Below, piece by piece: positions 4,401-38,178 of a stretch of DNA of 64,000 nt (positions are counted from its first letter, which is position 1; the number at the start of each line of letters is the position of its first letter). The stretch is taken from assembly GCA_051362555.1 (NCBI GenBank), contig CM120643.1, positions 13,676,644-13,740,643 on the forward strand, in the 5' to 3' direction. This DNA is from Lingula anatina. Taxonomy: Eukaryota; Animalia; Brachiopoda. The translations under genes and the position numbers were made by a program. Under the pieces are notes generated by a model. The model saw nothing but the letters and a program-made list of their open reading frames with translations. It was not told where the DNA came from and made no database searches.

Positions 4401-5913
4401 ATGGAGAGCGTGTTTCTATGCCTTGCGCGTAAAATTCACATTTCATGCTCTCATCAAAATTGGTCTAATTTTCATAATAATATATTTATACTGTATATAC
4501 AGTCTATGTGTTTAATAAAAGTACACGTGAAACAAAATACACATGTAAGTTCTTTTTCAAAAGATTTAAGTTCTGTTTTGAATGTAATTAGTGTGCGCTA
4601 ATAAAATATTGGCAAACAGCGCACGTAAGTTTATTTCCAGAAACTTCTCCGTTTCTAATTCATATTTTTAATGTATTCTTATTCCACAAATAAAAATAAA
4701 ATGCCCCAAACGACTTGTTATTGCTTTTCTTAGTATATGCATTGCCGCTGTAATTTTCTAACCGAAAAGTAATGTTTCTTCTTGAATCTTTATTTCGAGT
4801 TCTTAAAAAAGAAATGTACGAAAAGCAAGATACATGTAGTACAATTTATTCTGGATATAAGAAATGCATGCAATTATTAATGCATGTTATCGTTTAAAAG
4901 CGCGTTATCTTGAAGAATGTTTGTCCTTCATCTGCAAGAAGCACTTGTTAGGGAAGTTGCATAAACACACAACGACAAAACTTTATATCTAATACACATA
5001 GCAGAGAGGACAATCTGTATAACGAGTGCTTGTTCGAGAAAATATAACGCTAACATTAAATTGAGAAAGAAGCAGGAAAGGACGTAGTATGAAAATACGT
5101 TTCAATATTACACAAAGAAGAACGTGATATACATGTTGAAAAAATATACATTCATGGATATTACATTTATGAACATTTTCTCGAAATAAAGTATCAGTGA
5201 CTATATCTAAATTATTATTTACTGAAAGTGTTCATAATTTCCATCATTCGGTAAAGTATAGTTTGCCAATTTCGTTTCTTGTAACTTGCTTCTGTCCTGT
5301 ACAGTATTTCCAGTATAATTAAATGCACAGAAAACAACATATTTTAAACAATTATGTCGCAACTTTAAATTGTGAAGCAAAATAGCGATTATAAGGTCCT
5401 GGCGTTACGAGGCTTCAAATGTGATCCTGACTTTCTTTATCGGTCCTCAGAGTACCAAATCTGGTCTTCTTGCTTATCAGGACTAAAGACACTTTCAAAA
5501 GCGATCCAGTTTTGCCTAACAGATTTACTTTCATGCAGGTACTGTCTGCACTGCACTTAAAATTAACATGTTAGAATGGAATGGAAGCGTTCCATCAGTC
5601 AGCATTGCAACACTTGCTCTTAAATTGTGAGATTGTCCTCATTAAAAAGTTCAAATTTTATAACTAAATTGGATTCAAGCCATAAATTGTTACATTCACA
5701 CATACATGCATACATTAATAGATATATGAATAGTTAAAAATAAAAACGGTTTATTATACATGTATCATGATGTTCGGAGCTTCAAAATTGGTCCCAAAAT
5801 TGTATTTCGCTTTCTCGTTTGTTCAGCCTCAAATACATTTTACACAAAACTGACCAGTCTTATCTCGCTGAGAGATCTTTTGCAAAAGTCCCGCAAAAAG
5901 CCTGCAGATATAG

Positions 5914-7803
5914 TTATTCGTCCTCGTCCTCATCTATCATATTATTCCTGTTCAGAGAGTCAGCGTTAATGGATAATCGTTCGAATTCGTCCAAACTATA
6001 CCAGACTCTGAGGTACCATCTATCGTCAGTGTTGACATAGCCTGACACGTTCAGACACCTTCGATAACAGAAACAATTGGCTTTGACTGCACTATTATGA
6101 TATATTGCAAGCTTCTGTAAAATATCAACAATTTCTTTGTGCGCGTGGAGCTCTGACACTGTGTTCGACATTGTACCAATCAAAAAATTCATTAAAAGGA
6201 CTGCAACGAATAAAATGTATATAATGTGCAAAACCACAAGTACGTGCATTTCTGGTGTGTCAGGGTCTGTTAGGGCTACAACGTCCACCATATTGAGCAT
6301 GATCTTGAACGTTGAATAAAACGACAGACCAAGGCTACTGAAGTTATCTTCACAAAAGGGAAGGAGCAAAGAGAAAAACATAAGACTGAATGTCCATATG
6401 AAAATGCCTAATAGTAACAAGAATTTTGTTAAGTCGCCCAACATGCGCTCAAAAACCAATACGTAATGCCCTATTTTTGGAAGGAGCTGCATGTAATAAA
6501 GAAAAATCCACAAGTTTAACAATATTAAAATACTCTGCAACATATATGCGACAAATAGCCATGGGCTGTCATCACCGAGGAAAACCAGCACAAAAAGGGC
6601 TATCATACATATGCTTTGCAAAAAAATGACAACGTCCTGGCTGTATATGGAAACAACATTTTTTCTGCCCAAAGAGAGTATTATTTTTCTGTAACCAAAG
6701 CCCTCTTTTCCTTTCGAACTAGCGTTAGAAATAAACAACTTAATTTTTTGGCCAGCGATAAAAATACTTACTCCCAAAAAGAAATAGAGATAAAGTGACA
6801 ACAAGGTCCGGAGGAAGGAGAAAAAAGGATCTGAACCCAAATTCTTACAGTCAACAGTGATGAAAGACTCATTCCCTGTGCCCGACCCATTTGTCGCTGA
6901 AATGTTGTACCAATACTTTTGAAAAGATTGCTCGTGCACGTTATTCAAACGCAATCCAATCACAAGCATCCAGAACATTATACCAAACAGGATCTCACCA
7001 AAAACCTCATGAATCAGAAAAAGTCTCACCATTTTAGCATAAACCTGTGTCCAAGCCTTGATGAGGGGAGACTCCAAAAAAGCTTTGGTTTCATTATTCT
7101 TTAAATGGAATTCTTCGAGATATATCAAATGAATGAAAGGGCACTTTGAAGACCGGCAACCGGAAGTGACGTGGTAATCTGTGATATCATACCACACTTG
7201 CTGTTGCAGTGCTGGAGATGGCTTAGGGTACATGTAAACACCTTCCGTGTTGAGAATAGTCGTCATAAGCGGCAGTGTTCCAAGGACTGATGTCAACTCA
7301 AGTGGGCGCAACCCAAGGTCGTTCTCCTGGAATAGCAGTTTTCTTAGTGTAATGAACGGTACATGTGATTCCAGAATCTTGTAAATCTGCTGATATTGTT
7401 CCATGCGTCCTTCCCACAGTTTACCGGCCCATACCAAAGTGTGGATGATGTTATTTCTAGATTCTGATGATTCTAGGTCAATTCCAGCTGATATCAGCAA
7501 GCGGAAACATCGGATGGAACCTCGCATTACGGCGATCATCAGAGGAAGGCAAAATGTCGGACATTCTTTGCTCAAACTAGGTGCTGGATCGTGTTGAATG
7601 TCAAATGGACAATTGATAACGCCTCTGTCGATGGTCAGTAAAAATCCGCTTAGTTTTTCGTGGTCATCTTGCAGTAAAGCCTGCAAAAAGGTCTCGTTTT
7701 CTGGCAATGGCAAAAGACATTCATTATGTGGTGAAACGTCCAGGTAAACGGGTTTATTTGATGGCGTGTCATTACTTGGGTGAACTGAACATCTCGTCTC
7801 CAT
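5914..7803 (-). CDS. TRPV-like cation channel (short ankyrin-like N-terminus, 6 TM), single coding exon, 629 aa
   Basis: NNIIHTLV and ENDLGLRPLEL ankyrin-like motifs; S4-S5 YYMQLLPKIGHYVLVFERMLGDLTKF; pore helix SFYSTFKIMLNMVD; S6 LLMNFLIGTMSNTV; splice acceptor at 7856-7858. Confidence 0.88.
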   Translation of the reverse strand: METRCSVHPSNDTPSNKPVYLDVSPHNECLLPLPENETFLQALLQDDHEKLSGFLLTIDRGVINCPFDIQHDPAPSLSKECPTFCLPLMIAVMRGSIRCFRLLISAGIDLESSESRNNIIHTLVWAGKLWEGRMEQYQQIYKILESHVPFITLRKLLFQENDLGLRPLELTSVLGTLPLMTTILNTEGVYMYPKPSPALQQQVWYDITDYHVTSGCRSSKCPFIHLIYLEEFHLKNNETKAFLESPLIKAWTQVYAKMVRLFLIHEVFGEILFGIMFWMLVIGLRLNNVHEQSFQKYWYNISATNGSGTGNESFITVDCKNLGSDPFFSFLRTLLSLYLYFFLGVSIFIAGQKIKLFISNASSKGKEGFGYRKIILSLGRKNVVSIYSQDVVIFLQSICMIALFVLVFLGDDSPWLFVAYMLQSILILLNLWIFLYYMQLLPKIGHYVLVFERMLGDLTKFLLLLGIFIWTFSLMFFSLLLPFCEDNFSSLGLSFYSTFKIMLNMVDVVALTDPDTPEMHVLVVLHIIYILFVAVLLMNFLIGTMSNTVSELHAHKEIVDILQKLAIYHNSAVKANCFCYRRCLNVSGYVNTDDRWYLRVWYSLDEFERLSINADSLNRNNMIDEDEDE

Positions 7804-7940
7804 CAGGATGTGATATTTTTGTTAGTTTTTTAAAAGTGAAGTTTTATGGAACGATCTGGAAGCAAAGAGATACAATAATTTCTTGGCTTTTTGCAAAAAG
7901 TTAAAACATTTGCGTTTATTAGAGTGTGCAAACCGTTGCC

Positions 7941-8273
7941 TTAAAGGGATAATAACTCTTCACTCTGCCCCAAAAATGAATATTCCTGCAGTAAACAACA
8001 ATTTCCCATACTGAGGCTATCAATGGTTAATGAATCTATTTTTACATTCAAAGTTAGTCCCTATTTTTTGTTCTAAAAAGTTTATTTTTTTGTTATAATC
8101 TCTTAAGAGATTATAACAGAGTATAGCCATCAATGGAGGTCACGTGGTCTAAAGGCAAGCTCAGATATTAGAATCATAGCTATAACTGCCTTTTTTGTGG
8201 TAAAACAGAATATATTATATTTCTATGAGTTGTTCTCAAATAGATCTCATACGAAGAGTTATTATCCCTTTAA
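7941..8273. mobile_element. MITE with TTAA ends (Kolobok-like termini TTAA|AGGG...CCCT|TTAA)
   Basis: Perfect 21-bp inverted repeat ttaaagggataataactcttc (7941-7961) / gaagagttattatccctttaa (8253-8273); absent from the paralogous site near 1610. Confidence 0.85.
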
Positions 8274-11200
8274 CAGAACATTGTAACTCGAAAACAAATT
8301 ATTGTAAGAAAAGAAGGGGAGGTCGGCACACCCACTTATCTCCAAAGTAAAACAATGAAATTAACCCTCCGTCAGTTTGAATGGTTACAAGATATGTGCA
8401 AGCGTAATAAAACAAAAAATAGGGGCAATGCAGATAAAGCGTGACTCGCCAGCCAGAACTAATTTTTACATTGGAAAGTAGTCTCTTTTTGTTGTTTATT
8501 TTTTTGTGAGTTTAGTATAGTCATTTTTATGTACAATATGTATCTTGTGTAGGATTTATGCCCTTTACTGTGACAAATTCTTACTTTGGATAAGCCTTGC
8601 AAGTATTATGCAATCACATGGTTAACAAAAAAGTCCCTTTTGAGGAAAGCCGCCCCTAGTTCGCCCCTTGGCATTTTTTATATGGCATAACGGTGACTAT
8701 AATGGAGAATAGAGAAATCGACACTTTCGTTCTAATGTAATTACTTAATCTTTATCAGCTTTTGAGGTAGTTGATTTGTTGTTAATTGACACATTAGAGA
8801 TAGAAATTGCTTTGAAAATAAATCTTGTAATATTTCGGTCAAAGCGACTGTGCTTTTGTTGGTTCTGTTGTTATTAAGCTCAGATTTATTTCAAGAAGGT
8901 GTAGCCTAAGGTACAGGTAACAGTGCTATTGTTACTCAGTTATATCGAGTTAAATGCATAGGAATGGGTAAAACTGTTTTTTTTCTTTTGGATTCTAGTA
9001 TGCGTGCGAACTTGCCCCACGGGGTGTGAAAACTTGCCCTTGGGCTTGGACAAGACATTTTAAATTGAATTTACTTTGAAAAAAAAAAAATGATTACAGT
9101 GAACTTCTGATACTTATACCACAATAAAAGTATATGAATGCGCTTTCATCTGAAAAAATCTACAAGCCTGATAGTAATAGTATTCTTTCCATCCCAATTT
9201 TTATAGCCCCGCATTCCCCTACTCATCTTTGCGGATAGACCGTTTTATTTTAAATGCTGGAAATGTAATTAATATTTTAGATTTTCTCTATGAATACACA
9301 GAAAAATTTACATTAACTACCTATGCATCTCTCATGCTTTTCCATAAGCCCACTTTTTCTGTCAGCCAGATATTTTGTTCCACATAAAGTTATTTTTCTG
9401 TGGCATGTATACCTGAACATTTTCGTGACTGTTTAGTAACCTATAAATTGCGTTTCTTTCCTGGTACAAGATACCCTTACCTGCGTCTAAGTTGCACAGC
9501 CTGTAGCGAAATTGGTTTGCAGCTTGCATTCCCACCGCAGGTGTTTTCAAATATCGAATACGACACCCCTTTATGTAGCGCATTAAGGTGGATCAATACG
9601 TAACTATGGGTAGCTTTAACTTGGCAACATAAATATGTATCATAACCTCTTGTATGCAAATCTAGAGATGTTATGTGACATATGCTTTATTAAAGAGACA
9701 TTTATTGCTTGTGAAATGTGAGTACTTCTTCTCGGTATGTATGTAAAATAATACACTGCCTCCTTATCGCGATATATGCCTTGCACACCTCTTGCGGACA
9801 CTCGAGGTGTCCTGGCATATATCGCTCAGGTGACAGTGTATTATCACAAACATACAGATAGTGACTTCAGTATCGGTGCCGGACAACGGTGAAGTAATGC
9901 GCTTCAAACGTGTAACACTCTTGTCACAATGAATAGGGACACGGGCGTGTTTCTAATGACATTTAACAGCTTTAAAGATAAATGATTTCCATTACTAGAT
10001 ACATCTTTGTTGATTAAATAGTCACGTTTTGTGAAGTCTGCCAATTAAAGAGCGTCGGCTAATGGATATGAAAGCAAATACACTAATTGATCTATTTATC
10101 TGTTAAGTGAGCTGGTGCCCCATTGTCTGATATTACTGATACCGCACATTTGGAATCAATTGGTTGACAATTGTAATACAAATCTCAAAACCTGTATCTT
10201 TAAACAGTAGTCAATTTTTCGGTATCTTGATTGGAATTGATTTTACTCTTCATTGAAGTTTCATAGACATTGAATCTTGAAAAATGCTGAAATTTTGAAT
10301 GATAGCGTAGTTTCAGTCGAACTTAAGTACGTATTTCTCCAGTAACTGCTAATTCAAGATAGCATGTTTTGTAATTGCATGCACACAGCGCTAAATCGTA
10401 CTTGTAACGCAGTTTTGAAAACTTTATAATAATAAAAAAAATAATAATAATTACTAATATTATTATTTTTATTTTTAAAGACGTTTCTTTTGTCAAGACT
10501 CTTTTGGCCTGTTGGCATCAGAATAGAAAAACATCAAAATGCACAATCAATTACACTACACTAGTGCTTTCTCAAAACTAGAATATATCATACCTAAAGT
10601 TTGTCCCAGAGCAAAGAGATTCTTCCTTGCTGACGTCTGAGTTAATGGCCATATGTTCATTTTATATTCAGAATCAAATTCAAAATCCAATTATATTTGC
10701 CAGAAAGTTATACAGGAATTGCGTTTATTCTTGCTCAAAAAAGATGAACTCAAGGTATGTTGAAGAAGTTTGGACAGAAATGAAATAAAACTAGAGATTG
10801 TAGATGTGTCTGGATATACCCCTATATATCAATGATATCTGACATTCTTTTTACTGATTTGTTTCCTTTCTCTGTCTCTATAACAGCTCAGTTTAAATGG
10901 GGCCAAAAGATTCTGTTAAAATACACTGGCATGAAAGCCTCCTTCTTTTCCCCAAATTGCAGTTACTTGATAAAGTAACGAATTAAGTGGTGGCGTATCA
11001 TTTCGATGATTCATTGTTATTGATTCGTGAACTGTATTAGCAGATATATGTAAATTCAATAGCAATTTCTGAATTGATGAAAAAAGCACGTGTTCAGCAG
11101 CATGACACGATAGCGGTGAATCTGAGAATTTAATACTTGAAATTGTTGTGCTATCATGTGCTATTCACACAATGCAAAAGATAATTGAAGGCAAAGATAC

Positions 11201-12596: not shown

Positions 12597-14429
12597 TCAG
12601 CATTGATGGGATAATCGTTCGAATTCGTCCAAACGGTACCAGACTCTGAGGTACCATCTATCGTCAGTGTTGACATACCCTGACATTGTAAGACAAAGTC
12701 GACAAAAACAACAGCAATTAGCACTTGCAGCGCTGTTGTAATATATGGCAAGCTTCTGTAAATTATCAACAATCTCTCTTTGGACGTGGAGCTCTGACAC
12801 GGTGTTCGACATTGTACCAATCATAAAATTCATTATAAGGACTGCAACGAATAAAATGTATATAATGTGCAAAACCAAAAGTACGTGCATTTCTGGTGTG
12901 CCAGGGTCTGCTAACGCGGAAACAACAACCATATTTAGCATGATCTTGAAAGTTGAATAAAACGACACACCAAGGCTACCGAAGTAATCTTCACAGAAGG
13001 GAAGCAGCAGAGTGAAAAACATAAGACTGAATGTCCACATGAAAATACCTAATAGTAACAAGAATTTCGTTAAGTCGCCCAACATGCGCTCGAAAACTAA
13101 TACGTAATACCCTATCTTTGGCAGGAGCTGCATGTAGTAGAGAAAAGTCCATGTGTTCAATAACATTATTGTACTCTGCAACATATATTCGACGTACATG
13201 TGTAACCGCGATGGACTGTGATAATTAATGGCATAATGCACAAATAGGACTATCATTAGAAGGCTCTTCATAAAAGATACTGCGTGCTGCATATTCAAGA
13301 AAGCGATACTTTTTCTGTGCGTACAAAATATAATTTTTCTGAAGCCGAACCCCTTCTTTCTTGTCAAAATTAGGCTTGAAATAAACATTTTAAGTTTTTT
13401 GCCAAAATCTACTACACTTGCCAAAAGAATAAAATTACAAAAAAGAACGAGCACGATCTCGAGAAAGTTGAAAAGAGGATCTGCAGTCAGCTTCTTGCAG
13501 TGAAAAGTGTTATCGGTGCCATTGCCCGAGTCCGATTCATTTTGCGATGAAGCGTTGTACTTGCTTGAACGGAGGCCCATCACGAACATCCAGAATATTG
13601 TGCCATACAGGATCTCACCAAAAACCTCGTAAATCAGATATCGTCTCACCATTTTCCCATAGGTCTGTGTCCAAGCCTTGATAAAAGGGGATCTAAAGAG
13701 GTATTTAGTTTCACTATTCTCTAACTGGGATTCTTCAAGATATATCAAATGATAAAACGGACTTTTTGAAGACCGGCAACCGGAGGTTTCGTGGTAATCT
13801 GAGATGTCATACCACACTTGTTGTTGCAGTGCTGGAGAGGGCTTAGGGTACATGTAAACCCCTTTCGTGTTGAGAATAGTCATCATAAGAGGCAGTGTTC
13901 CAAGGACTGATGTCAACTCAAGTGGGCGCAACCCAATGTCGTTCTCCTGCAACAGCAGTTTTCGTAGTGTAATGAGTGGTACACGTGACTCCAGAATCTT
14001 GTAAATCTTCTGATATTGTTCCATGCGTTCTGGCCACAGTTTACCGGCCCATATCAAAGCGTGAATAGTGTTATTACTAGATTCTGATGATTCTATATCA
14101 ATTCCGGCTGATAGCAGTAAGTGGAAACATCTGATAGATCCTCGCATTACGGCGATCATCAGAGGAAGGCAAAATGTTGGACACTCAATGCTCAAACTAG
14201 GTGCTGGGTCGTGTTGAATGTCAAATGGAGAATTGATGATGAATCTGTCGTTGGTCTGTAAAAGACCGTCTAGTGTTTCGTGGTCATCTTGCAGTAGAGC
14301 CTGCAAATACGCCTCGTATTCTGGCAATGGCAATGAGCGGTTGTTAGAAATTAAAATATCCAGGCAATCCGTTTTGTTTGATTGCGTATCCTTACTTGAA
14401 TGAGCTGAACAGCTCGTCGCCATGGCCAT
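12597..14429 (-). CDS. TRPV-like cation channel paralog, single coding exon (~610 aa from the first ATG at 14429; the ORF-track start at 14444 is TTG)
   Basis: Close paralog of 5914-7803 with the same ankyrin-like, S4-S5, pore and S6 motifs; polypyrimidine-CAG acceptor at 14512-14530. Confidence 0.88.
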   Translation of the reverse strand: MAMATSCSAHSSKDTQSNKTDCLDILISNNRSLPLPEYEAYLQALLQDDHETLDGLLQTNDRFIINSPFDIQHDPAPSLSIECPTFCLPLMIAVMRGSIRCFHLLLSAGIDIESSESSNNTIHALIWAGKLWPERMEQYQKIYKILESRVPLITLRKLLLQENDIGLRPLELTSVLGTLPLMMTILNTKGVYMYPKPSPALQQQVWYDISDYHETSGCRSSKSPFYHLIYLEESQLENSETKYLFRSPFIKAWTQTYGKMVRRYLIYEVFGEILYGTIFWMFVMGLRSSKYNASSQNESDSGNGTDNTFHCKKLTADPLFNFLEIVLVLFCNFILLASVVDFGKKLKMFISSLILTRKKGFGFRKIIFCTHRKSIAFLNMQHAVSFMKSLLMIVLFVHYAINYHSPSRLHMYVEYMLQSTIMLLNTWTFLYYMQLLPKIGYYVLVFERMLGDLTKFLLLLGIFMWTFSLMFFTLLLPFCEDYFGSLGVSFYSTFKIMLNMVVVSALADPGTPEMHVLLVLHIIYILFVAVLIMNFMIGTMSNTVSELHVQREIVDNLQKLAIYYNSAASANCCCFCRLCLTMSGYVNTDDRWYLRVWYRLDEFERLSHQC

Positions 14430-14610
14430 GGTTTCGTTCGTCAAATCAGAGTTAAATCTGTTGTATATTTACATTGGGTTGTCACACTTTAAAAAAACTC
14501 AATGTGACAACCTGGAAACAAAAAAAAATGTAATATAATTAGTGTTTTGTATTGTGGAAGGTATTTTAAAAAGAAAGACACATTATATGGAGAATCATAC
14601 ATATACATGG

Positions 14611-17600: not shown

Positions 17601-18730
17601 CAATCCAACGCCAACGTGCAACAGGGGAAAGTCTGTCAGTGTATTACATAATATATGAAAGTGCGGTCAATATTAACAGTGTAAGACATCAGTTAAAGAG
17701 GAGGGGGTCTTACTATCTTTTGTTAAACGCGACTGTTATTATCTCTCGAACAAGCTTAAACCATGCCTTATACAATAGCGAGAAGCAAGTCGATTATTAT
17801 TAGAATTTATGTGTTGGGGGTGGTGGGCTCATGACCTAGTTAGATTCCACTTTACCAGAATAACACGATTCAGAGCTGGGCCTCTGAGGACGTGTATTTT
17901 TACAGCGCCCCTTGCAGAGTAGACAGCGGCTCTTAGAGTGTGTTAGGCTTTTCGCCTTTATTATGAGAACCACTTGTCTTTGATAGGAAGGTAGGTGTCT
18001 CGCCTGCCTGGTATGAGATACATAGTCATTTATATATGTAGGGTGCCCTGAAAAGGACATTCCGTGCTGAGTAGAGAGCGACTCTTAGAGTGTGTTAGGC
18101 TTCTCGCCTTTATTATAGGGAAAGAACGTCTTTATAAGAGAGTAGGTGTCTCGCCTACTTCGTATGAGATTTATAGATACCGATCTACACTGGGGGCCCT
18201 GAAAAGGGCATTTCGTGATTGGCACAATAGAGGCGTCTCGCCTGTCGAGGGAAGGGGGAGGGTGGACTGGTTGCAGAGTGTTGGGGGTGGTGGGCTCATG
18301 ACCTAGTTAGATTCCACTTTACCAGAATAACACGATTCAGAGCTGGGCCTCTGAGGACGTGTATTTTTACAGCGCCCCTTGCAGAGTAGACAGCGGCTCT
18401 TAGAGTGTGTTAGGCTTTTCGCCTTTATTATGAGAACCACTTGTCTTTGATAGGAAGGTAGGTGTCTCGCCTGCCTGGTATGAGATACATAGTCATTTAT
18501 ATATGTAGGGTGCCCTGAAAAGGACATTCCGTGCTGAGTAGAGAGCGACTCTTAGAGTGTGTTAGGCTTCTCGCCTTTATTATAGGGAAAGAACGTCTTT
18601 ATAAGAGAGTAGGTGTCTCGCCTACTTCGTATGAGATTTATAGATACCGATCTACACTGGGGGCCCTGAAAAGGGCATTTCGTGATTGGCACAATAGAGG
18701 CGTCTCGCCTGTCGAGGGAAGGGGGAGGGT

Positions 18731-18789
18731 GGACTGGTTGCAGAAAGCGCTTTTCGGTCAACAAGTGACCTTCATCAGCTGCAGAGTCC
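18731..18789 (-). ncRNA. Minimal type I hammerhead ribozyme (further minus-strand copies at 21304-21362, 23877-23935, 26450-26508, 32328-32386, 34901-34959; core-mutant copy at 29023-29081)
   Basis: Reverse complement reads GGACU-C-UGCAG CUGAUGA A GGUCA cuugu UGACC GAA AAGCGCUU U^ CUGCA-ACC-AGUCC. Confidence 0.88.
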
Positions 18790-19611
18790 GATTAATAAAA
18801 AAAAGGAAAAATTTAGGGACGTAGGGGCTGGTAAGCAAAGGTGTCTCGCCTTTGTTTAGTAAGTTTTCATCAATGGTGTCTCGCCATTGTGAATGATACG
18901 GGCCATCTCGGCTTTTAAGTATCATGCTTTGTTTAGTGATTTTCATCAATGGTGTCTCGCCATTGTGAATGATACGAGCCATCTCGGCTTTATAGTATCA
19001 TGCTTGATCACAAGTGTCTCGCTTGTGTCAAAGTGGACGGTATGAATCGAGCGTGTGAATGGCTCAAGAGTCGGAGGTCGACTGAGGATTTGTTGAAATT
19101 GTGTCAAATCGAGATCGAGGCCGCGATCTGATTGGTTGTTTCAGTTATGAGTTTTGATTGGCTGTTCTCGTGGTGTATCTTGATCCTATCTGTTTAGATG
19201 TAGTTTATTTGGTTTCATTTTTGGCAAGGTATTTTAACCTCGGATCAAATTTATTAGTATTCTTATGCTGTGCATTTGCGTGTTAACACTGAATTTTCAT
19301 TTGCTAGGATGGTCTGTATAGGTTTCGGGCACCTCTTTTAATTTTGGAAGGCTTTCTCCTTGTTGCTTATAAATAAACTGAGATATCATCTCGCCTTTTA
19401 TTTGCGATGTTTGTGTCTTATAAGTCGATTGTGCCCTGTAAGTGTTTAAAATTTGGTCTAAATGAGATTATGGCATTTTGCTTTATCTCCAGAATGACTT
19501 TTCTTTTCTTTATTGATTATTAATAAGTGTGGGGAAGGCATCTCGCCTTTTATTTGCATTATTGCGCTCTATTTGAACATTCAGGTTTAGCTTTTCCTGG
19601 TAGAAATGGGT

Positions 19612-19627
19612 GGCCCTGAAAAGGGCC
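19612..19627 (-). terminator. Histone-type mRNA 3' stem-loop downstream of the 209-aa ORF (present after all nine ORF copies)
   Basis: Reverse complement AAAAAC-GGCCCTTTTCAGGGCC-ACCCA. Confidence 0.8.
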
Positions 19628-19664
19628 GTTTTTTTCCGAGGACGTAGAAGCAGTGGCTTCTATT

Positions 19665-20294
19665 TTACAGTGTAGTTTTCTTGGCTGAGGTTAGTCTTCG
19701 TTTCACTTTGCTGGCTAGCACGCGGCTCTTCTTCTTGTCCTTCATGGCGAGAATGAGGAGTCTCATTTGCTCCATGATCTGGTTGTTTGTGGTCGTTGAA
19801 GTAGAGGGTTGGTTTCCTGGCGTGTACACGCCGTGGATGTTGAAGTGCTCTTCCGCCCTGGATTCCCTCTCTTCTGCCTTTGCTAAGCTTTCCTTAGCTT
19901 TGTCTACGAAAGCTTGCGTGTGGGCCTCGATCGCGGATTTAAGCTCTGTTGCGGCCTTGTCTTGTATGTTGATCATTGCTGCCAGAAGGATGTCGTCATC
20001 AGGGCACCCCCTGAAGTCTACACGGCATCTGACATGGTGGGCGTTGTTGCTGAGTTGTGTGAGCATGTGGTCTGCCCAGTCAGAGCAGCCTTTCAGGTAA
20101 GCTTTTGCTCTGACGACTTCGTCGTGGTAGGGGTTGCCGTTGACTCCTGGGGGGCCGGCTGTAATTGGCGCCGGTCTCTTGGGGATTCTCCCCCTGGGTG
20201 GTGCAGTGCTATGCCAGTTTTTTGATTCCATATTTCTAGGTTTTTTCCATTCCCTAGGAGATCGTTTTCCTCTGATACTTGTTTGATGATACAT
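19665..20294 (-). CDS. 209-aa element-encoded protein, copy 1 (basic N- and C-termini, helical core)
   Basis: Longest ORF of the unit, ATG start, same strand as the ribozyme, upstream CCAAT/TATA-like motifs, downstream histone stem-loop. Confidence 0.7.
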   Translation of the reverse strand: MYHQTSIRGKRSPREWKKPRNMESKNWHSTAPPRGRIPKRPAPITAGPPGVNGNPYHDEVVRAKAYLKGCSDWADHMLTQLSNNAHHVRCRVDFRGCPDDDILLAAMINIQDKAATELKSAIEAHTQAFVDKAKESLAKAEERESRAEEHFNIHGVYTPGNQPSTSTTTNNQIMEQMRLLILAMKDKKKSRVLASKVKRRLTSAKKTTL

Positions 20295-22237
20295 AGTGAG
20301 CGCGTTGTGAAAGAAATTGCTGTATTGCCAGACTTATGCCTTCCATTGAGAGTGTGCTGCTTTAAGTGTACACCCTGCTGAGGGGAGCACCGACGTTAAG
20401 GAGCTATGTGGTGTTGTGTGCTTCCCGTTGATTCTAAAAGTGTGTCATTAAGGAGCTTTGTGATTGGCTGATTGTCAAGCCATTGTCCGGTGTCTTATGT
20501 CTTGACTATTCAAGAATGTATGCACAGAATCCCCCGACAAGTGTAAATTTTGGTTTTAGTGGTTGTTTGTCAGGTTTTCTTGGTTATTACTATTGTTCCC
20601 TAGTGAGTAATAGGAACGTAGTTGTCTCGCCTACGTGGTATGTGATTATCATTATCATATGTCCGTGTATTATGGTACATAGATCATTTTGTTCCTTGTG
20701 ATCCGTAGGTTAAGGCGTGTTCCGATAAAGCAGAAAAAACCCCGTCACGCCAGTACCCAAAACACTAGCTACAAAGTAACCAGTGTTAAGGGACGGTTCC
20801 CGGTTCGGACAGTCCCACATTGCGGCCGGCCCCAGGGCCAAATAGCTTAAGTGTTGGGGGTGGTGGGCTCATGACCTAGTTAGATTCCACTTTACCAGAA
20901 TAACACGATTCAGAGCTGGGCCTCTGAGGACGTGTATTTTTACAGCGCCCCTTGCAGAGTAGACAGCGGCTCTTAGAGTGTGTTAGGCTTTTCGCCTTTA
21001 TTATGAGAACCACTTGTCTTTGATAGGAAGGTAGGTGTCTCGCCTGCCTGGTATGAGATACATAGTCATTTATATATGTAGGGTGCCCTGAAAAGGACAT
21101 TCCGTGCTGAGTAGAGAGCGACTCTTAGAGTGTGTTAGGCTTCTCGCCTTTATTATAGGGAAAGAACGTCTTTATAAGAGAGTAGGTGTCTCGCCTACTT
21201 CGTATGAGATTTATAGATACCGATCTACACTGGGGGCCCTGAAAAGGGCATTTCGTGATTGGCACAATAGAGGCGTCTCGCCTGTCGAGGGAAGGGGGAG
21301 GGTGGACTGGTTGCAGAAAGCGCTTTTCGGTCAACAAGTGACCTTCATCAGCTGCAGAGTCCGATTAATAAAAAAAAGGAAAAATTTAGGGACGTAGGGG
21401 CTGGTAAGCAAAGGTGTCTCGCCTTTGTTTAGTAAGTTTTCATCAATGGTGTCTCGCCATTGTGAATGATACGGGCCATCTCGGCTTTTAAGTATCATGC
21501 TTTGTTTAGTGATTTTCATCAATGGTGTCTCGCCATTGTGAATGATACGAGCCATCTCGGCTTTATAGTATCATGCTTGATCACAAGTGTCTCGCTTGTG
21601 TCAAAGTGGACGGTATGAATCGAGCGTGTGAATGGCTCAAGAGTCGGAGGTCGACTGAGGATTTGTTGAAATTGTGTCAAATCGAGATCGAGGCCGCGAT
21701 CTGATTGGTTGTTTCAGTTATGAGTTTTGATTGGCTGTTCTCGTGGTGTATCTTGATCCTATCTGTTTAGATGTAGTTTATTTGGTTTCATTTTTGGCAA
21801 GGTATTTTAACCTCGGATCAAATTTATTAGTATTCTTATGCTGTGCATTTGCGTGTTAACACTGAATTTTCATTTGCTAGGATGGTCTGTATAGGTTTCG
21901 GGCACCTCTTTTAATTTTGGAAGGCTTTCTCCTTGTTGCTTATAAATAAACTGAGATATCATCTCGCCTTTTATTTGCGATGTTTGTGTCTTATAAGTCG
22001 ATTGTGCCCTGTAAGTGTTTAAAATTTGGTCTAAATGAGATTATGGCATTTTGCTTTATCTCCAGAATGACTTTTCTTTTCTTTATTGATTATTAATAAG
22101 TGTGGGGAAGGCATCTCGCCTTTTATTTGCATTATTGCGCTCTATTTGAACATTCAGGTTTAGCTTTTCCTGGTAGAAATGGGTGGCCCTGAAAAGGGCC
22201 GTTTTTTTCCGAGGACGTAGAAGCAGTGGCTTCTATT

Positions 22238-22867
22238 TTACAGTGTAGTTTTCTTGGCTGAGGTTAGTCTTCGTTTCACTTTGCTGGCTAGCACGCGGCT
22301 CTTCTTCTTGTCCTTCATGGCGAGAATGAGGAGTCTCATTTGCTCCATGATCTGGTTGTTTGTGGTCGTTGAAGTAGAGGGTTGGTTTCCTGGCGTGTAC
22401 ACGCCGTGGATGTTGAAGTGCTCTTCCGCCCTGGATTCCCTCTCTTCTGCCTTTGCTAAGCTTTCCTTAGCTTTGTCTACGAAAGCTTGCGTGTGGGCCT
22501 CGATCGCGGATTTAAGCTCTGTTGCGGCCTTGTCTTGTATGTTGATCATTGCTGCCAGAAGGATGTCGTCATCAGGGCACCCCCTGAAGTCTACACGGCA
22601 TCTGACATGGTGGGCGTTGTTGCTGAGTTGTGTGAGCATGTGGTCTGCCCAGTCAGAGCAGCCTTTCAGGTAAGCTTTTGCTCTGACGACTTCGTCGTGG
22701 TAGGGGTTGCCGTTGACTCCTGGGGGGCCGGCTGTAATTGGCGCCGGTCTCTTGGGGATTCTCCCCCTGGGTGGTGCAGTGCTATGCCAGTTTTTTGATT
22801 CCATATTTCTAGGTTTTTTCCATTCCCTAGGAGATCGTTTTCCTCTGATACTTGTTTGATGATACAT
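22238..22867 (-). CDS. 209-aa element-encoded protein, copy 2
   Basis: Translation identical to copy 1. Confidence 0.7.
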   Translation of the reverse strand: MYHQTSIRGKRSPREWKKPRNMESKNWHSTAPPRGRIPKRPAPITAGPPGVNGNPYHDEVVRAKAYLKGCSDWADHMLTQLSNNAHHVRCRVDFRGCPDDDILLAAMINIQDKAATELKSAIEAHTQAFVDKAKESLAKAEERESRAEEHFNIHGVYTPGNQPSTSTTTNNQIMEQMRLLILAMKDKKKSRVLASKVKRRLTSAKKTTL

Positions 22868-24810
22868 AGTGAGCGCGTTGTGAAAGAAATTGCTGTATTG
22901 CCAGACTTATGCCTTCCATTGAGAGTGTGCTGCTTTAAGTATACACCCTGCTGAGGGGAGCACCGACGTTAAGGAGCTATGTGGTGTTGTGTGCTTCCCG
23001 TTGATTCTAAAAGTGTGTCATTAAGGAGCTTTGTGATTGGCTGATTGTCAAGCCATTGTCCGGTGTCTTATGTCTTGACTATTCAAGAATGTATGCACAG
23101 AATCCCCCGACAAGTGTAAATTTTGGTTTTAGTGGTTGTTTGTCAGGTTTTCTTGGTTATTACTATTGTTCCCTAGTGAGTAATAGGAACGTAGTTGTCT
23201 CGCCTACGTGGTATGTGATTATCATTATCATATGTCCGTGTATTATGGTACATAGATCATTTTGTTCCTTGTGATCCGTAGGTTAAGGCGTGTTCCGATA
23301 AAGCAGAAAAAACCCCGTCACGCCAGTACCCAAAACACTAGCTACAAAGTAACCAGTGTTAAGGGACGGTTCCCGGTTCGGACAGTCCCACATTGCGGCC
23401 GGCCCCAGGGCCAAATAGCTTAAGTGTTGGGGGTGGTGGGCTCATGACCTAGTTAGATTCCACTTTACCAGAATAACACGATTCAGAGCTGGGCCTCTGA
23501 GGACGTGTATTTTTACAGCGCCCCTTGCAGAGTAGACAGCGGCTCTTAGAGTGTGTTAGGCTTTTCGCCTTTATTATGAGAACCACTTGTCTTTGATAGG
23601 AAGGTAGGTGTCTCGCCTGCCTGGTATGAGATACATAGTCATTTATATATGTAGGGTGCCCTGAAAAGGACATTCCGTGCTGAGTAGAGAGCGACTCTTA
23701 GAGTGTGTTAGGCTTCTCGCCTTTATTATAGGGAAAGAACGTCTTTATAAGAGAGTAGGTGTCTCGCCTACTTCGTATGAGATTTATAGATACCGATCTA
23801 CACTGGGGGCCCTGAAAAGGGCATTTCGTGATTGGCACAATAGAGGCGTCTCGCCTGTCGAGGGAAGGGGGAGGGTGGACTGGTTGCAGAAAGCGCTTTT
23901 CGGTCAACAAGTGACCTTCATCAGCTGCAGAGTCCGATTAATAAAAAAAAGGAAAAATTTAGGGACGTAGGGGCTGGTAAGCAAAGGTGTCTCGCCTTTG
24001 TTTAGTAAGTTTTCATCAATGGTGTCTCGCCATTGTGAATGATACGGGCCATCTCGGCTTTTAAGTATCATGCTTTGTTTAGTGATTTTCATCAATGGTG
24101 TCTCGCCATTGTGAATGATACGAGCCATCTCGGCTTTATAGTATCATGCTTGATCACAAGTGTCTCGCTTGTGTCAAAGTGGACGGTATGAATCGAGCGT
24201 GTGAATGGCTCAAGAGTCGGAGGTCGACTGAGGATTTGTTGAAATTGTGTCAAATCGAGATCGAGGCCGCGATCTGATTGGTTGTTTCAGTTATGAGTTT
24301 TGATTGGCTGTTCTCGTGGTGTATCTTGATCCTATCTGTTTAGATGTAGTTTATTTGGTTTCATTTTTGGCAAGGTATTTTAACCTCGGATCAAATTTAT
24401 TAGTATTCTTATGCTGTGCATTTGCGTGTTAACACTGAATTTTCATTTGCTAGGATGGTCTGTATAGGTTTCGGGCACCTCTTTTAATTTTGGAAGGCTT
24501 TCTCCTTGTTGCTTATAAATAAACTGAGATATCATCTCGCCTTTTATTTGCGATGTTTGTGTCTTATAAGTCGATTGTGCCCTGTAAGTGTTTAAAATTT
24601 GGTCTAAATGAGATTATGGCATTTTGCTTTATCTCCAGAATGACTTTTCTTTTCTTTATTGATTATTAATAAGTGTGGGGAAGGCATCTCGCCTTTTATT
24701 TGCATTATTGCGCTCTATTTGAACATTCAGGTTTAGCTTTTCCTGGTAGAAATGGGTGGCCCTGAAAAGGGCCGTTTTTTTCCGAGGACGTAGAAGCAGT
24801 GGCTTCTATT

Positions 24811-25440
24811 TTACAGTGTAGTTTTCTTGGCTGAGGTTAGTCTTCGTTTCACTTTGCTGGCTAGCACGCGGCTCTTCTTCTTGTCCTTCATGGCGAGAAT
24901 GAGGAGTCTCATTTGCTCCATGATCTGGTTGTTTGTGGTCGTTGAAGTAGAGGGTTGGTTTCCTGGCGTGTACACGCCGTGGATGTTGAAGTGCTCTTCC
25001 GCCCTGGATTCCCTCTCTTCTGCCTTTGCTAAGCTTTCCTTAGCTTTGTCTACGAAAGCTTGCGTGTGGGCCTCGATCGCGGATTTAAGCTCTGTTGCGG
25101 CCTTGTCTTGTATGTTGATCATTGCTGCCAGAAGGATGTCGTCATCAGGGCACCCCCTGAAGTCTACACGGCATCTGACATGGTGGGCGTTGTTGCTGAG
25201 TTGTGTGAGCATGTGGTCTGCCCAGTCAGAGCAGCCTTTCAGGTAAGCTTTTGCTCTGACGACTTCGTCGTGGTAGGGGTTGCCGTTGACTCCTGGGGGG
25301 CCGGCTGTAATTGGCGCCGGTCTCTTGGGGATTCTCCCCCTGGGTGGTGCAGTGCTATGCCAGTTTTTTGATTCCATATTTCTAGGTTTTTTCCATTCCC
25401 TAGGAGATCGTTTTCCTCTGATACTTGTTTGATGATACAT
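24811..25440 (-). CDS. 209-aa element-encoded protein, copy 3
   Basis: Translation identical to copy 1. Confidence 0.7.
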   Translation of the reverse strand: MYHQTSIRGKRSPREWKKPRNMESKNWHSTAPPRGRIPKRPAPITAGPPGVNGNPYHDEVVRAKAYLKGCSDWADHMLTQLSNNAHHVRCRVDFRGCPDDDILLAAMINIQDKAATELKSAIEAHTQAFVDKAKESLAKAEERESRAEEHFNIHGVYTPGNQPSTSTTTNNQIMEQMRLLILAMKDKKKSRVLASKVKRRLTSAKKTTL

Positions 25441-27383
25441 AGTGAGCGCGTTGTGAAAGAAATTGCTGTATTGCCAGACTTATGCCTTCCATTGAGAGTG
25501 TGCTGCTTTAAGTATACACCCTGCTGAGGGGAGCACCGACGTTAAGGAGCTATGTGGTGTTGTGTGCTTCCCGTTGATTCTAAAAGTGTGTCATTAAGGA
25601 GCTTTGTGATTGGCTGATTGTCAAGCCATTGTCCGGTGTCTTATGTCTTGACTATTCAAGAATGTATGCACAGAATCCCCCGACAAGTGTAAATTTTGGT
25701 TTTAGTGGTTGTTTGTCAGGTTTTCTTGGTTATTACTATTGTTCCCTAGTGAGTAATAGGAACGTAGTTGTCTCGCCTACGTGGTATGTGATTATCATTA
25801 TCATATGTCCGTGTATTATGGTACATAGATCATTTTGTTCCTTGTGATCCGTAGGTTAAGGCGTGTTCCGATAAAGCAGAAAAAACCCCGTCACGCCAGT
25901 ACCCAAAACACTAGCTACAAAGTAACCAGTGTTAAGGGACGGTTCCCGGTTCGGACAGTCCCACATTGCGGCCGGCCCCAGGGCCAAATAGCTTAAGTGT
26001 TGGGGGTGGTGGGCTCATGACCTAGTTAGATTCCACTTTACCAGAATAACACGATTCAGAGCTGGGCCTCTGAGGACGTGTATTTTTACAGCGCCCCTTG
26101 CAGAGTAGACAGCGGCTCTTAGAGTGTGTTAGGCTTTTCGCCTTTATTATGAGAACCACTTGTCTTTGATAGGAAGGTAGGTGTCTCGCCTGCCTGGTAT
26201 GAGATACATAGTCATTTATATATGTAGGGTGCCCTGAAAAGGACATTCCGTGCTGAGTAGAGAGCGACTCTTAGAGTGTGTTAGGCTTCTCGCCTTTATT
26301 ATAGGGAAAGAACGTCTTTATAAGAGAGTAGGTGTCTCGCCTACTTCGTATGAGATTTATAGATACCGATCTACACTGGGGGCCCTGAAAAGGGCATTTC
26401 GTGATTGGCACAATAGAGGCGTCTCGCCTGTCGAGGGAAGGGGGAGGGTGGACTGGTTGCAGAAAGCGCTTTTCGGTCAACAAGTGACCTTCATCAGCTG
26501 CAGAGTCCGATTAATAAGAAAAAGGAAAAATTTAGGGACGTAGGGGCTGGTAAGCAAAGGTGTCTCGCCTTTGTTTAGTAAGTTTTCATCAATGGTGTCT
26601 CGCCATTGTGAATGATACGGGCCATCTCGGCTTTTAAGTATCATGCTTTGTTTAGTGATTTTCATCAATGGTGTCTCGCCATTGTGAATGATACGAGCCA
26701 TCTCGGCTTTATAGTATCATGCTTGATCACAAGTGTCTCGCTTGTGTCAAAGTGGACGGTATGAATCGAGCGTGTGAATGGCTCAAGAGTCGGAGGTCGA
26801 CTGAGGATTTGTTGAAATTGTGTCAAATCGAGATCGAGGCCGCGATCTGATTGGTTGTTTCAGTTATGAGTTTTGATTGGCTGTTCTCGTGGTGTATCTT
26901 GATCCTATCTGTTTAGATGTAGTTTATTTGGTTTCATTTTTGGCAAGGTATTTTAACCTCGGATCAAATTTATTAGTATTCTTATGCTGTGCATTTGCGT
27001 GTTAACACTGAATTTTCATTTGCTAGGATGGTCTGTATAGGTTTCGGGCACCTCTTTTAATTTTGGAAGGCTTTCTCCTTGTTGCTTATAAATAAACTGA
27101 GATATCATCTCGCCTTTTATTTGCGATGTTTGTGTCTTATAAGTCGATTGTGCCCTGTAAGTGTTTAAAATTTGGTCTAAATGAGATTATGGCATTTTGC
27201 TTTATCTCCAGAATGACTTTTCTTTTCTTTATTGATTATTAATAAGTGTGGGGAAGGCATCTCGCCTTTTATTTGCATTATTGCGCTCTATTTGAACATT
27301 CAGGTTTAGCTTTTCCTGGTAGAAATGGGTGGCCCTGAAAAGGGCCGTTTTTTTCCGAGGACGTAGAAGCAGTGGCTTCTATT

Positions 27384-28013
27384 TTACAGTGTAGTTTTCT
27401 TGGCTGAGGTTAGTCTTCGTTTCACTTTGCTGGCTAGCACGCGGCTCTTCTTCTTGTCCTTCATGGCGAGAATGAGGAGTCTCATTTGCTCCATGATCTG
27501 GTTGTTTGTGGTCGTTGAAGTAGAGGGTTGGTTTCCTGGCGTGTACACGCCGTGGATGTTGAAGTGCTCTTCCGCCCTGGATTCCCTCTCTTCTGCCTTT
27601 GCTAAGCTTTCCTTAGCTTTGTCTACGAAAGCTTGCGTGTGGGCCTCGATCGCGGATTTAAGCTCTGTTGCGGCCTTGTCTTGTATGTTGATCATTGCTG
27701 CCAGAAGGATGTCGTCATCAGGGCACCCCCTGAAGTCTACACGGCATCTGACATGGTGGGCGTTGTTGCTGAGTTGTGTGAGCATGTGGTCTGCCCAGTC
27801 AGAGCAGCCTTTCAGGTAAGCTTTTGCTCTGACGACTTCGTCGTGGTAGGGGTTGCCGTTGACTCCTGGGGGGCCGGCTGTAATTGGCGCCGGTCTCTTG
27901 GGGATTCTCCCCCTGGGTGGTGCAGTGCTATGCCAGTTTTTTGATTCCATATTTCTAGGTTTTTTCCATTCCCTAGGAGATCGTTTTCCTCTGATACTTG
28001 TTTGATGATACAT
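27384..28013 (-). CDS. 209-aa element-encoded protein, copy 4
   Basis: Translation identical to copy 1. Confidence 0.7.
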   Translation of the reverse strand: MYHQTSIRGKRSPREWKKPRNMESKNWHSTAPPRGRIPKRPAPITAGPPGVNGNPYHDEVVRAKAYLKGCSDWADHMLTQLSNNAHHVRCRVDFRGCPDDDILLAAMINIQDKAATELKSAIEAHTQAFVDKAKESLAKAEERESRAEEHFNIHGVYTPGNQPSTSTTTNNQIMEQMRLLILAMKDKKKSRVLASKVKRRLTSAKKTTL

Positions 28014-30289
28014 AGTGAGCGCGTTGTGAAAGAAATTGCTGTATTGCCAGACTTATGCCTTCCATTGAGAGTGTGCTGCTTTAAGTATACACCCTGCTGA
28101 GGGGAGCACCGACGTTAAGGAGCTATGTGGTGTTGTGTGCTTCCCGTTGATTCTAAAAGTGTGTCATTAAGGAGCTTTGTGATTGGCTGATTGTCAAGCC
28201 ATTGTCCGGTGTCTTATGTCTTGACTATTCAAGAATGTATGCACAGAATCCCCCGACAAGTGTAAATTTTGGTTTTAGTGGTTGTTTGTCAGGTTTTCTT
28301 GGTTATTACTATTGTTCCCTAGTGAGTAATAGGAACGTAGTTGTCTCGCCTACGTGGTATGTGATTATCATTATCATATGTCCGTGTATTATGGTACATA
28401 GATCATTTTGTTCCTTGTGATCCGTAGGTTAAGGCGTGTTCCGATAAAGCAGAAAAAACCCCGTCACGCCAGTACCCAAAACACTAGCTACAAAGTAACC
28501 AGTGTTAAGGGACGGTTCCCGGTTCGGACAGTCCCACATTGCGGCCGGCCCCAGGGCCAAATAGCTTAAGTGTTGGGGGTGGTGGGCTCATGACCTAGTT
28601 AGATTCCACTTTACCAGAATAACACGATTCAGAGCTGGGCCTCTGAGGACGTGTATTTTTACAGCGCCCCTTGCAGAGTAGACAGCGGCTCTTAGAGTGT
28701 GTTAGGCTTTTCGCCTTTATTATGAGAACCACTTGTCTTTGATAGGAAGGTAGGTGTCTCGCCTGCCTGGTATGAGATACATAGTCATTTATATATGTAG
28801 GGTGCCCTGAAAAGGACATTCCGTGCTGAGTAGAGAGCGACTCTTAGAGTGTGTTAGGCTTCTCGCCTTTATTATAGGGAAAGAACGTCTTTATAAGAGA
28901 GTAGGTGTCTCGCCTACTTCGTATGAGATTTATAGATACCGATCTACACTGGGGGCCCTGAAAAGGGCATTTCGTGATTGGCACAATAGAGGCGTCTCGC
29001 CTGTCGAGGGAAGGGGGAGGGTGGACTGGTTGCAGAAAGCGCTATTCGGTCAACAAGTGACCTTCATCAGCTGCAGAGTCCGATTAATAAAAAAAAGGAA
29101 AAATTTAGGGACGTAGGGGCTGGTAAGCAAAGGTGTCTCGCCTTTGTTTAGTAAGTTTTCATCAATGGTGTCTCGCCATTGTGAATGATACGGGCCATCT
29201 CGGCTTTTAAGTATCATGCTTTGTTTAGTGATTTTCATCAATGGTGTCTCGCCATTGTGAATGATACGAGCCATCTCGGCTTTATAGTATCATGCTTGAT
29301 CACAAGTGTCTCGCTTGTGTCAAAGTGGACGGTATGAATCGAGCGTGTGAATGGCTCAAGAGTCGGAGGTCGACTGAGGATTTGTTGAAATTGTGTCAAA
29401 TCGAGATCGAGGCCGCGATCTGATTGGTTGTTTCAGTTATGAGTTTTGATTGGCTGTTCTCGTGGTGTATCTTGATCCTATCTGTTTAGATGTAGTTTAT
29501 TTGGTTTCATTTTTGGCAAGGTATTTTAACCTCGGATCAAATTTATTAGTATTCTTATGCTGTGCATTTGCGTGTTAACACTGAATTTTCATTTGCTAGG
29601 ATGGTCTGTATAGGTTTCGGGCACCTCTTTTAATTTTGGAAGGCTTTCTCCTTGTTGCTTATAAATAAACTGAGATATCATCTCGCCTTTTATTTGCGAT
29701 GTTTGTGTCCCTCAAGTGTTGGGGGTGGTGGGCTCATGACCTAGTTAGATTCCACTTTACCAGAATAACACGATTCAGAGCTGGGCCTCTGAGGACGTGT
29801 ATTTTTACAGCGCCCCTTGCAGAGTAGACAGCGGCTCTTAGAGTGTGTTAGGCTTTTCGCCTTTATTATGAGAACCACTTGTCTTTGATAGGAAGGTAGG
29901 TGTCTCGCCTGCCTGGTATGAGATACATAGTCATTTATATATGTAGGGTGCCCTGAAAAGGACATTCCGTGCTGAGTAGAGAGCGACTCTTATAGTGTGT
30001 TAGGCTTCTCGCCTTTATTATAGGGAAAGAACGTCTTTATAAGAGAGTAGGTGTCTCGCCTACTTCGTATGAGATTTATAGATACCGATCTACACTGGGG
30101 GCCCTGAAAAGGGCATTTCGTGATTGGCACAATAGAGGCGTCTCGCCTGTCGAGGGAAGGGGGAGGGTGGACTGGTTGCAGAAAGCGCTTTTCGGTCAAC
30201 CCTCAGCAGGGTGTATACTTAAAGCAGCACACTCTCAATGGAAGGCATAAGTCTGGCAATACAGCAATTTCTTTCACAACGCGCTCACT

Positions 30290-30919
30290 ATGTATCATCA
30301 AACAAGTATCAGAGGAAAACGATCTCCTAGGGAATGGAAAAAACCTAGAAATATGGAATCAAAAAACTGGCATAGCACTGCACCACCCAGGGGGAGAATC
30401 CCCAAGAGACCGGCGCCAATTACAGCCGGCCCCCCAGGAGTCAACGGCAACCCCTACCACGACGAAGTCGTCAGAGCAAAAGCTTACCTGAAAGGCTGCT
30501 CTGACTGGGCAGACCACATGCTCACACAACTCAGCAACAACGCCCACCATGTCAGATGCCGTGTAGACTTCAGGGGGTGCCCTGATGACGACATCCTTCT
30601 GGCAGCAATGATCAACATACAAGACAAGGCCGCAACAGAGCTTAAATCCGCGATCGAGGCCCACACGCAAGCTTTCGTAGACAAAGCTAAGGAAAGCTTA
30701 GCAAAGGCAGAAGAGAGGGAATCCAGGGCGGAAGAGCACTTCAACATCCACGGCGTGTACACGCCAGGAAACCAACCCTCTACTTCAACGACCACAAACA
30801 ACCAGATCATGGAGCAAATGAGACTCCTCATTCTCGCCATGAAGGACAAGAAGAAGAGCCGCGTGCTAGCCAGCAAAGTGAAACGAAGACTAACCTCAGC
30901 CAAGAAAACTACACTGTAA
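30290..30919 (+). CDS. 209-aa element-encoded protein, copy 5 (in an inverted partial unit lacking the upstream CCAAT box)
   Basis: Translation identical to copy 1. Confidence 0.65.
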   Translation: MYHQTSIRGKRSPREWKKPRNMESKNWHSTAPPRGRIPKRPAPITAGPPGVNGNPYHDEVVRAKAYLKGCSDWADHMLTQLSNNAHHVRCRVDFRGCPDDDILLAAMINIQDKAATELKSAIEAHTQAFVDKAKESLAKAEERESRAEEHFNIHGVYTPGNQPSTSTTTNNQIMEQMRLLILAMKDKKKSRVLASKVKRRLTSAKKTTL

Positions 30920-30956
30920 AATAGAAGCCACTGCTTCTACGTCCTCGGAAAAAAAC

Positions 30957-30995
30957 GGCCCTTTTCAGGGCCACCCATTTCTACCAGGAAAAGCT
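30957..30995 (+). terminator. Histone-type 3' stem-loop plus candidate purine-rich histone downstream element (also at 38846 and 41419)
   Basis: GGCCCTTTTCAGGGCC at 30957-30972, ACCCA at 30973-30977, CAGGAAAAGCT at 30985-30995. Confidence 0.8.
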
Positions 30996-31794
30996 AAACC
31001 TGAATGTTCAAATAGAGCGCAATAATGCAAATAAAAGGCGAGATGCCTTCCCCACACTTATTAATAATCAATAAAGAAAAGAAAAGTCATTCTGGAGATA
31101 AAGCAAAATGCCATAATCTCATTTAGACCAAATTTTAAACACTTACAGGGCACAATCGACTTATAAGACACAAACATCGCAAATAAAAGGCGAGATGATA
31201 TCTCAGTTTATTTATAAGCAACAAGGAGAAAGCCTTCCAAAATTAAAAGAGGTGCCCGAAACCTATACAGACCATCCTAGCAAATGAAAATTCAGTGTTA
31301 ACACGCAAATGCACAGCATAAGAATACTAATAAATTTGATCCGAGGTTAAAATACCTTGCCAAAAATGAAACCAAATAAACTACATCTAAACAGATAGGA
31401 TCAAGATACACCACGAGAACAGCCAATCAAAACTCATAACTGAAACAACCAATCAGATCGCGGCCTCGATCTCGATTTGACACAATTTCAACAAATCCTC
31501 AGTCGACCTCCGACTCTTGAGCCATTCACACGCTCGATTCATACCGTCCACTTTGACACAAGCGAGACACTTGTGATCAAGCATGATACTATAAAGCCGA
31601 GATGGCTCGTATCATTCACAATGGCGAGACACCATTGATGAAAATCACTAAACAAAGCATGATACTTAAAAGCCGAGATGGCCCGTATCATTCACAATGG
31701 CGAGACACCATTGATGAAAACTTACTAAACAAAGGCGAGACACCTTTGCTTACCAGCCCCTACGTCCCTAAATTTTTCCTTTTTTTTATTAATC

Positions 31795-31853
31795 GGACTC
31801 TGCAGCTGATGAAGGTCACTTGTTGACCGAAAAGCGCTTTCTGCAACCAGTCC
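31795..31853 (+). ncRNA. Minimal type I hammerhead ribozyme (further plus-strand copies at 39684-39742, 42257-42315, 43041-43099)
   Basis: Stem I TGCAG(31801-05)/CTGCA(31841-45) extended by GGACT/AGTCC; core CTGATGA 31806-12; stem II GGTCA/TGACC; GAAA; palindromic stem III AAGCGCTT; predicted cut after 31840. Confidence 0.88.
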
Positions 31854-38112: not shown

Positions 38113-38178
38113 GCAGCACACTCTCAATGGAAGGCATAAGTCTGGCAATACAGCAATTTCTTTCACAACGCGCTCACT

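Follow-up and report, generated by a model that had tools for sequence, protein, structure and literature searches.

Within the window, the whole 64,000-nucleotide stretch of Lingula anatina DNA analysed here, positions 17811-43552 hold one young 26-kb Penelope-type insertion, built from a single 2573-bp unit whose copies across the array are almost identical. Around the insertion lie four related intron-free ORFs, each 612-635 codons long (5917-7821, 12600-14468, 47733-49568 and 52903-54780). Three of the four match Pfam Ion_trans, one of them below the cut-off, and all four presumably resemble TRP-type channels. At the left edge of the window (3-1226, plus strand) lies an open LINE-like reverse transcriptase fragment with the domains RVT_1 and ALKBH8_N, which by this domain set we take not to be a Penelope-type enzyme. 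Towards the right edge, 59840-60479 holds a tandem repeat with no relation to the array, made of four diverged copies that each measure about 160 bp.

We number the unit u1-2573 in element sense, and the left side of the array is on the minus strand. Each unit carries a 209-codon ORF (19665-20294, minus strand), and the longest unit ORF measured from stop to stop has 222 codons. A Pfam search of the unit ORF returned no family, and reverse transcriptase and GIY-YIG endonuclease were both absent from it; the unit was accordingly rejected as an autonomous Penelope element, since it holds no reverse transcriptase. For the 209-codon ORF, no homologue of similar or greater length and no Atlas match was found. 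One distant homologue of 170 aa (P0001, about 30% identity) makes it likely that the ORF is real, and its single-sequence structure model is poor (pLDDT 57, pTM 0.25). Directly after the ORF, at 19588-19632 on the minus strand, lies a histone-type 3' stem-loop (Rfam RF00032), which at 38 bits exceeds the gathering score of 34 and therefore suggests that the ORF of this mobile element may be carried on a non-polyadenylated mRNA. Two weaker copies of the histone-type stem-loop occur at u2177 and u2328, within the outermost left piece of the array. Together with the channel-like ORFs and the LINE-like fragment, this stem-loop would fit an animal host. A short motif starting GGCGAGA occurs ten times per unit (counted in 18278-20850), several times within hairpins, and is a candidate protein-binding or promoter element.

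The array has a two-ended inverted layout, in which partial tandems form pseudo-LTRs and are joined to inverted copies, as is the case for Penelope-type insertions. From the left, piece A (17811-18277, minus strand) is a 467-bp, 3' pseudo-LTR-like copy, exact from u2573 to u2107 (its inner edge being u2107/2108), bounded on the left by host DNA (up to 17810) and on the right by the first full unit (from 18278). Tract B (18278-29709, minus strand) contains four full 2573-bp units and u1434-2573, and passes the predicted ribozyme cut site five times. Tract C (29714-30200, minus strand) restarts 2 nt past the terminus and stops at u2089, in loop II, 19 nt past the cut. Tract D (30201-31869, plus strand) is an inverted copy of u468-2136 without an anchor at the terminus. 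It stops at u2136 (3' end), within a C-rich stretch similar to the terminus and 28 nt after the cut, and may have arisen as a fold-back cDNA copy or from a second start site. Tract E (31872-37364, minus strand) restarts 3 nt past the terminus, holds two full units and stops at u2230. Head-to-head with it stands tract F (37365-42768, plus strand), with two full units and its 5' end at u2316, and tract G (42771-43552, plus strand), the outermost right piece, covers u1792-2573, has the same 3' end as piece A and abuts host DNA. Both outer ends of the array are thus u2573 joined to AT-rich host DNA. A target-site duplication was sought at both array ends and none was found, and the optional 30-40 bp tail of Penelope-type insertions is absent, both outer ends being u2573.

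The unit boundary u2573/u1 (20850-20851 in the first full unit, minus strand) is read through eight times in the array and used six times as an end, and these six ends fall between u2573 and u3. The restart junctions carry a T (piece A), TT and four other bases (tract C), TTA and two other bases (tract E) and a 2-base linker (tract F). Restarts with T, TT and TTA imply that the template RNA extends beyond u2573 and that a T from u1 is ordinary. In public sequencing runs, four further flanks adjoin this 3' end (-1 to +3), in two contigs of run X8 and in four reads each of X14, X16 and X17, which come from three studies. A fixed internal start for reverse transcription and an AT-rich target are both features of Penelope-type insertions. 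Internal initiation is supported here by the eight read-throughs and by the restarts 1-3 nt beyond the terminus. The original prediction had drawn this support from the join between piece A and tract B, which does not itself show an internal start, because piece A would look identical if u2573 were the end of the RNA. For the Anolis element PAc, an internal start at an AC-rich site has already been published, together with an AT-rich target (PMC11167929).

Each unit also contains a motif of the type I hammerhead ribozyme, which in the first full unit lies at 18731-18789 (u2062-2120, minus strand), with core boxes CUGANGA, GAAA and UH arranged around three helices of which helix I is open. The core starts at u2073 (window position 18778) with the box CUGAUGA, followed by one extra A. 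Stem I has five Watson-Crick pairs with a five-pair extension and an internal loop, stem II has five pairs, the GAAA box is present, and stem III has two pairs only, closed by a palindromic tetraloop. The predicted scissile bond lies between U2107 (18744) and C2108 (18743). With a relaxed hammerhead descriptor, one site per unit was found in a search of both strands of the unit, no match was found elsewhere in the window, and none of 300 shuffles gave any site. Among the Rfam hammerhead models, no family matched at E values up to 10. The marks of the Penelope variant are present, namely an extra base between positions 9 and 10.1, the pair G10.1-C11.1 and a palindromic 15.2-16.2. Stems I and II have pairing probabilities of 0.64-0.97 across three sequence contexts; stem III has a pairing probability of 0.0 in the monomer, and its palindrome could form an 8-pair duplex between two copies (-10.1 kcal/mol). 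The cut triplet is UUU. The fastest hammerhead triplets are GUC and GUA, and U17 is the slowest hammerhead cleavage residue. Given the missing Rfam match, the UUU triplet and a stem III that is unformed in the monomer, we treat self-cleavage as a predicted activity of this motif. Another register, in which cleavage would follow u2108, was rejected, as it costs one pair of stem I, gives a less favourable fold (-11.0 vs -13.3) and leaves the join between tract B and piece A unexplained. At u2099 (window position 29044), one copy carries a private substitution in the ribozyme core, at position 15.1.

Read on the minus strand, the join from tract B to piece A consists of the terminus, one T (18277), and then the predicted 3' cleavage product from C2108 on. 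Piece A had been predicted to start at the 5' end of the hammerhead 3' product, with one ambiguous T, and both points hold: the order of the join and the exact copy of u2107-2573 agree with the first, and the T matches u2107 and u1 alike. This T may be u2107 (the end of the 5' cleavage product), u1 (beyond the terminus) or an untemplated base, and because it is assignable to u2107 or u1, two positions count as a match at the cut. The two sides of the join have 0 letters in common to the left and 1 to the right, and since nothing beyond one T is common, slippage on homology does not explain it. A DNA-level origin, through slippage or unequal exchange after insertion, or a mis-assembly of the 467-bp piece, is improbable. 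Near-identical units do make assembly hard, and the join is absent among the listed joints of X1 and X3, which are possible source data; yet piece A is shaped like the partial tandems usual in Penelope-like insertions, other joins in the array bear untemplated linkers typical of reverse transcription, and an assembly error has no reason to fall on the cut site. We consider it slightly less probable still that the template's 5' end came from a transcription start or from another nuclease. The slow cut triplet would fit such an end, but the end coincides with the cut and is 46 nt away from the ribozyme's front edge, and the exact match to the scissile bond would then be a second coincidence.

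The alternative that weighs most is ordinary 5' truncation, in which the reverse transcriptase fell off an uncut or circular RNA in the structured ribozyme region, by luck at the cut, and then restarted; we regard it as a serious possibility, though one that falls well short of even odds. One of the six copies begun at the terminus (piece A) ends at the cut, and the other five stop at u1434, u2089, u2230, u2316 and u1792. Five of the six stop within 525 nt (u1792-2316), and three of eight breakpoints are no more than 30 nt away from the cut (at 0, -19 and +28). In addition, 12 copies in the array run seamlessly through the cut site, one of them carrying the core substitution. The chance of at least one match is 0.0047 for six events placed uniformly on the unit, 0.019 for five events confined to u1792-2316, and 0.095 when conditioned on three breakpoints within 30 nt of the cut. 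Truncation therefore requires a coincidence of 0.5-10%. In our inference, moreover, an enzyme stalled by structure should stop where stem I begins for it, at the 3' foot (about u2121), and not once the stem is unwound. On the other side, the two further breakpoints within 28 nt of the cut and the five copies that stop elsewhere are what truncation would give, and the join is a single event, selected post hoc for its fit, in a setting where the scanning of many windows favours picking such coincidences. On most of these nulls the join at the cut is unlikely by chance, yet it is not beyond chance, and we take it as a hint on an open question that falls short of proof.

Public sequencing runs were searched for further ends at the cut. 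An index of public runs lists ten carriers of the unit in four studies, four of them possible sources and none listed as an RNA run, and the search covered eight runs, as contigs of four DNA-type runs and raw reads of four RNA runs. None of 23 listed 5'-side loose ends lay within 5 nt of the cut (10 among 24 listed of 192 in contigs and 13 among 20 listed of 33 in reads), a search of low power, since contigs break at repeat edges and even the terminus appears in only two contigs of one run. Likewise, the join between tract B and piece A was absent among 15 listed joints of 24. The four RNA runs gave no joints and no pile-up of read starts or ends at the cut, at 39-110 reads each from 6-25% of the run and a depth below about 15, and these reads came mostly from diverged relatives. 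The lack of a second example in these low-power data is compatible with truncation.

Our preferred reading, to which we give a probability of roughly 55%, is that piece A is a run-off product from a self-cleaved RNA, after which copying jumped to a template that was uncut or circular. In such a process, a Penelope-like reverse transcriptase/endonuclease supplied in trans would cut AT-rich host DNA and prime from both ends. On the left side, reverse transcription would begin at u2573 on a hammerhead-cleaved RNA of the non-autonomous element, run off the cleaved 5' end after 466 nt, and begin again from that start site on an RNA that was either uncut or circular, with the single T as an added base or as a 1-nt pairing used for the jump. 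Later drop-offs and restarts would build tracts B to E, while G and F would grow from the right. The ribozyme would cut in the animal, probably as a dimer via the palindromic stem III, or with the help of protein. Most templates would be uncut multimers or re-ligated, closed circles, given the 12 copies without a scar at the cut, and cut linear RNA would be minor. In contigs the unit closes on itself, a result that a DNA tandem gives too, and the closed loop in runs X1-X4, whose records do not give a DNA or RNA type, was left out of the argument. One letter, at u483 (window position 20368), sets tract B's first unit apart from the nine remaining copies; the main contig of X1 carries the letter of that first unit and the main contig of X3 the other. 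The difference is possibly a standing variant instead of a private copying error. Given the opposite letters in the two runs, tract B may derive from more than one template unit, and a reading in which it was copied from a single circle is slightly weakened.

The original prediction had gone further and called the join a genomic record of in vivo self-cleavage, left when reverse transcription ran off the cleaved RNA and resumed on another template from the same initiation site. The first part is upheld insofar as the join falls at the sole predicted cut without homology, and is tempered by the single match among six events, the 12 uncut copies, the breakpoints 19 and 28 nt away and the UUU triplet. 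For the second part, the geometry is exactly as expected; the join is a single one, and it requires a second template that was uncut or circular, a condition absent from the prediction. A more tentative extension, which we consider possible rather than probable, is that the element is a Penelope satellite that lacks reverse transcriptase but codes for a protein. Cutting would take place in the germ line, where cut RNA would give rise to 466-bp pseudo-LTR pieces and re-ligated 2.6-kb circles to multi-unit tracts, all from one internal start.

The element behaves as retrozymes or non-autonomous Penelope-type elements do. Poseidon PAc of Anolis and other endonuclease-bearing Penelope-like elements share with it the partial tandems, the head-to-head inversion and the extension of both DNA ends; they differ in that the Lingula unit lacks reverse transcriptase and endonuclease, and that the outer ends of the Lingula array lie at the same base and carry no 30-40 bp tail (PMC11167929, PMC8557442, PMC3846280). 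PAc also has a hammerhead upstream of its fixed internal AC-rich start, with an AT-rich target, though the distance from cut to start is about 85-92 nt in PAc and 466 nt in the Lingula unit (PMC11167929). In the PAc study, uncut RNA is the dominant template and no RNA reads end at the cut, whereas the Lingula locus has a DNA end there (PMC11167929). Animal non-LTR retrozymes likewise consist of tandem units that each hold a type I hammerhead and no reverse transcriptase, and their spread by a Penelope enzyme acting on circular RNA has been proposed (PMC7229834; bioRxiv 10.64898/2026.07.22.740005). Retrozymes are non-coding and 51-972 bp long, in contrast to the 2573-bp Lingula unit with its 209-codon ORF and histone-type stem-loop (PMC7229834; bioRxiv 10.64898/2026.07.22.740005). 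The array therefore has the tandem hammerhead units of retrozymes without being short (<1 kb) and non-coding.

With the hammerheads described from Penelope elements, the Lingula motif shares the extra base after position 9, the pair G10.1-C11.1 and the short palindromic helix III (PMC4209133). These ribozymes are predicted to work as dimers and are poor cutters in vitro, and a course of cleavage, ligation and copying beyond unit length has been proposed for them (PMC4209133), as also for retrozymes. The paper on Penelope hammerheads states that there is no in vivo evidence, while the Lingula genomic join sits at the predicted cut (PMC4209133). A precedent for the join is R2 with its HDV-like ribozyme, where the ribozyme cut sets the genomic 5' join and bases are added at run-off; there, the ribozyme and the enzyme are different, reverse transcription starts at the RNA's 3' end, and the match holds over many copies (PMC3774820). 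A literature search, with most subscription papers outside its scope, returned no paper that describes genomic copies whose 5' ends fall at the cut of a Penelope hammerhead. The activity of Penelope hammerheads in vitro is low or protein-dependent (PMC11167929, PMC4209133). A family with an excess of genomic 5' ends at the cut would demonstrate the use of cleaved RNA and account for the origin of some pseudo-LTRs. If the element is indeed a satellite that codes for a protein without reverse transcriptase and is cut in the germ line, its 5' ends across the genome would peak at the cut, as direct genomic evidence of Penelope hammerhead function.

The public runs also point to diverged relatives. 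A metagenome pattern scan returned one locus (L001:1015-1043) with the same core, stem II and extra A, which was set aside as unrelated, having no matching stem I or terminus. In both large DNA runs, contigs are deepest at the terminus and across the ribozyme (2,800-8,600, vs roughly 20-1,100 on the ORF side), where summed contig depth is not equal to copy number. Diverged relatives match as far as the ribozyme's edges and depart from the reference at that point, with loose ends at u2054-2063 and u2124-2144. Together, the depth peaks and these loose ends fit a conserved cassette common to many families. The runs also point to a larger family of short elements in the host genome. On window positions 21280-21391, runs X8, X9, X16 and X17 show diverged families that have only the ribozyme cassette and the terminus in common. 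The spacers of these families differ, as in a form that is 353 bp shorter, and runs X8 and X9 contain a contig joint from u2135 to u2489.
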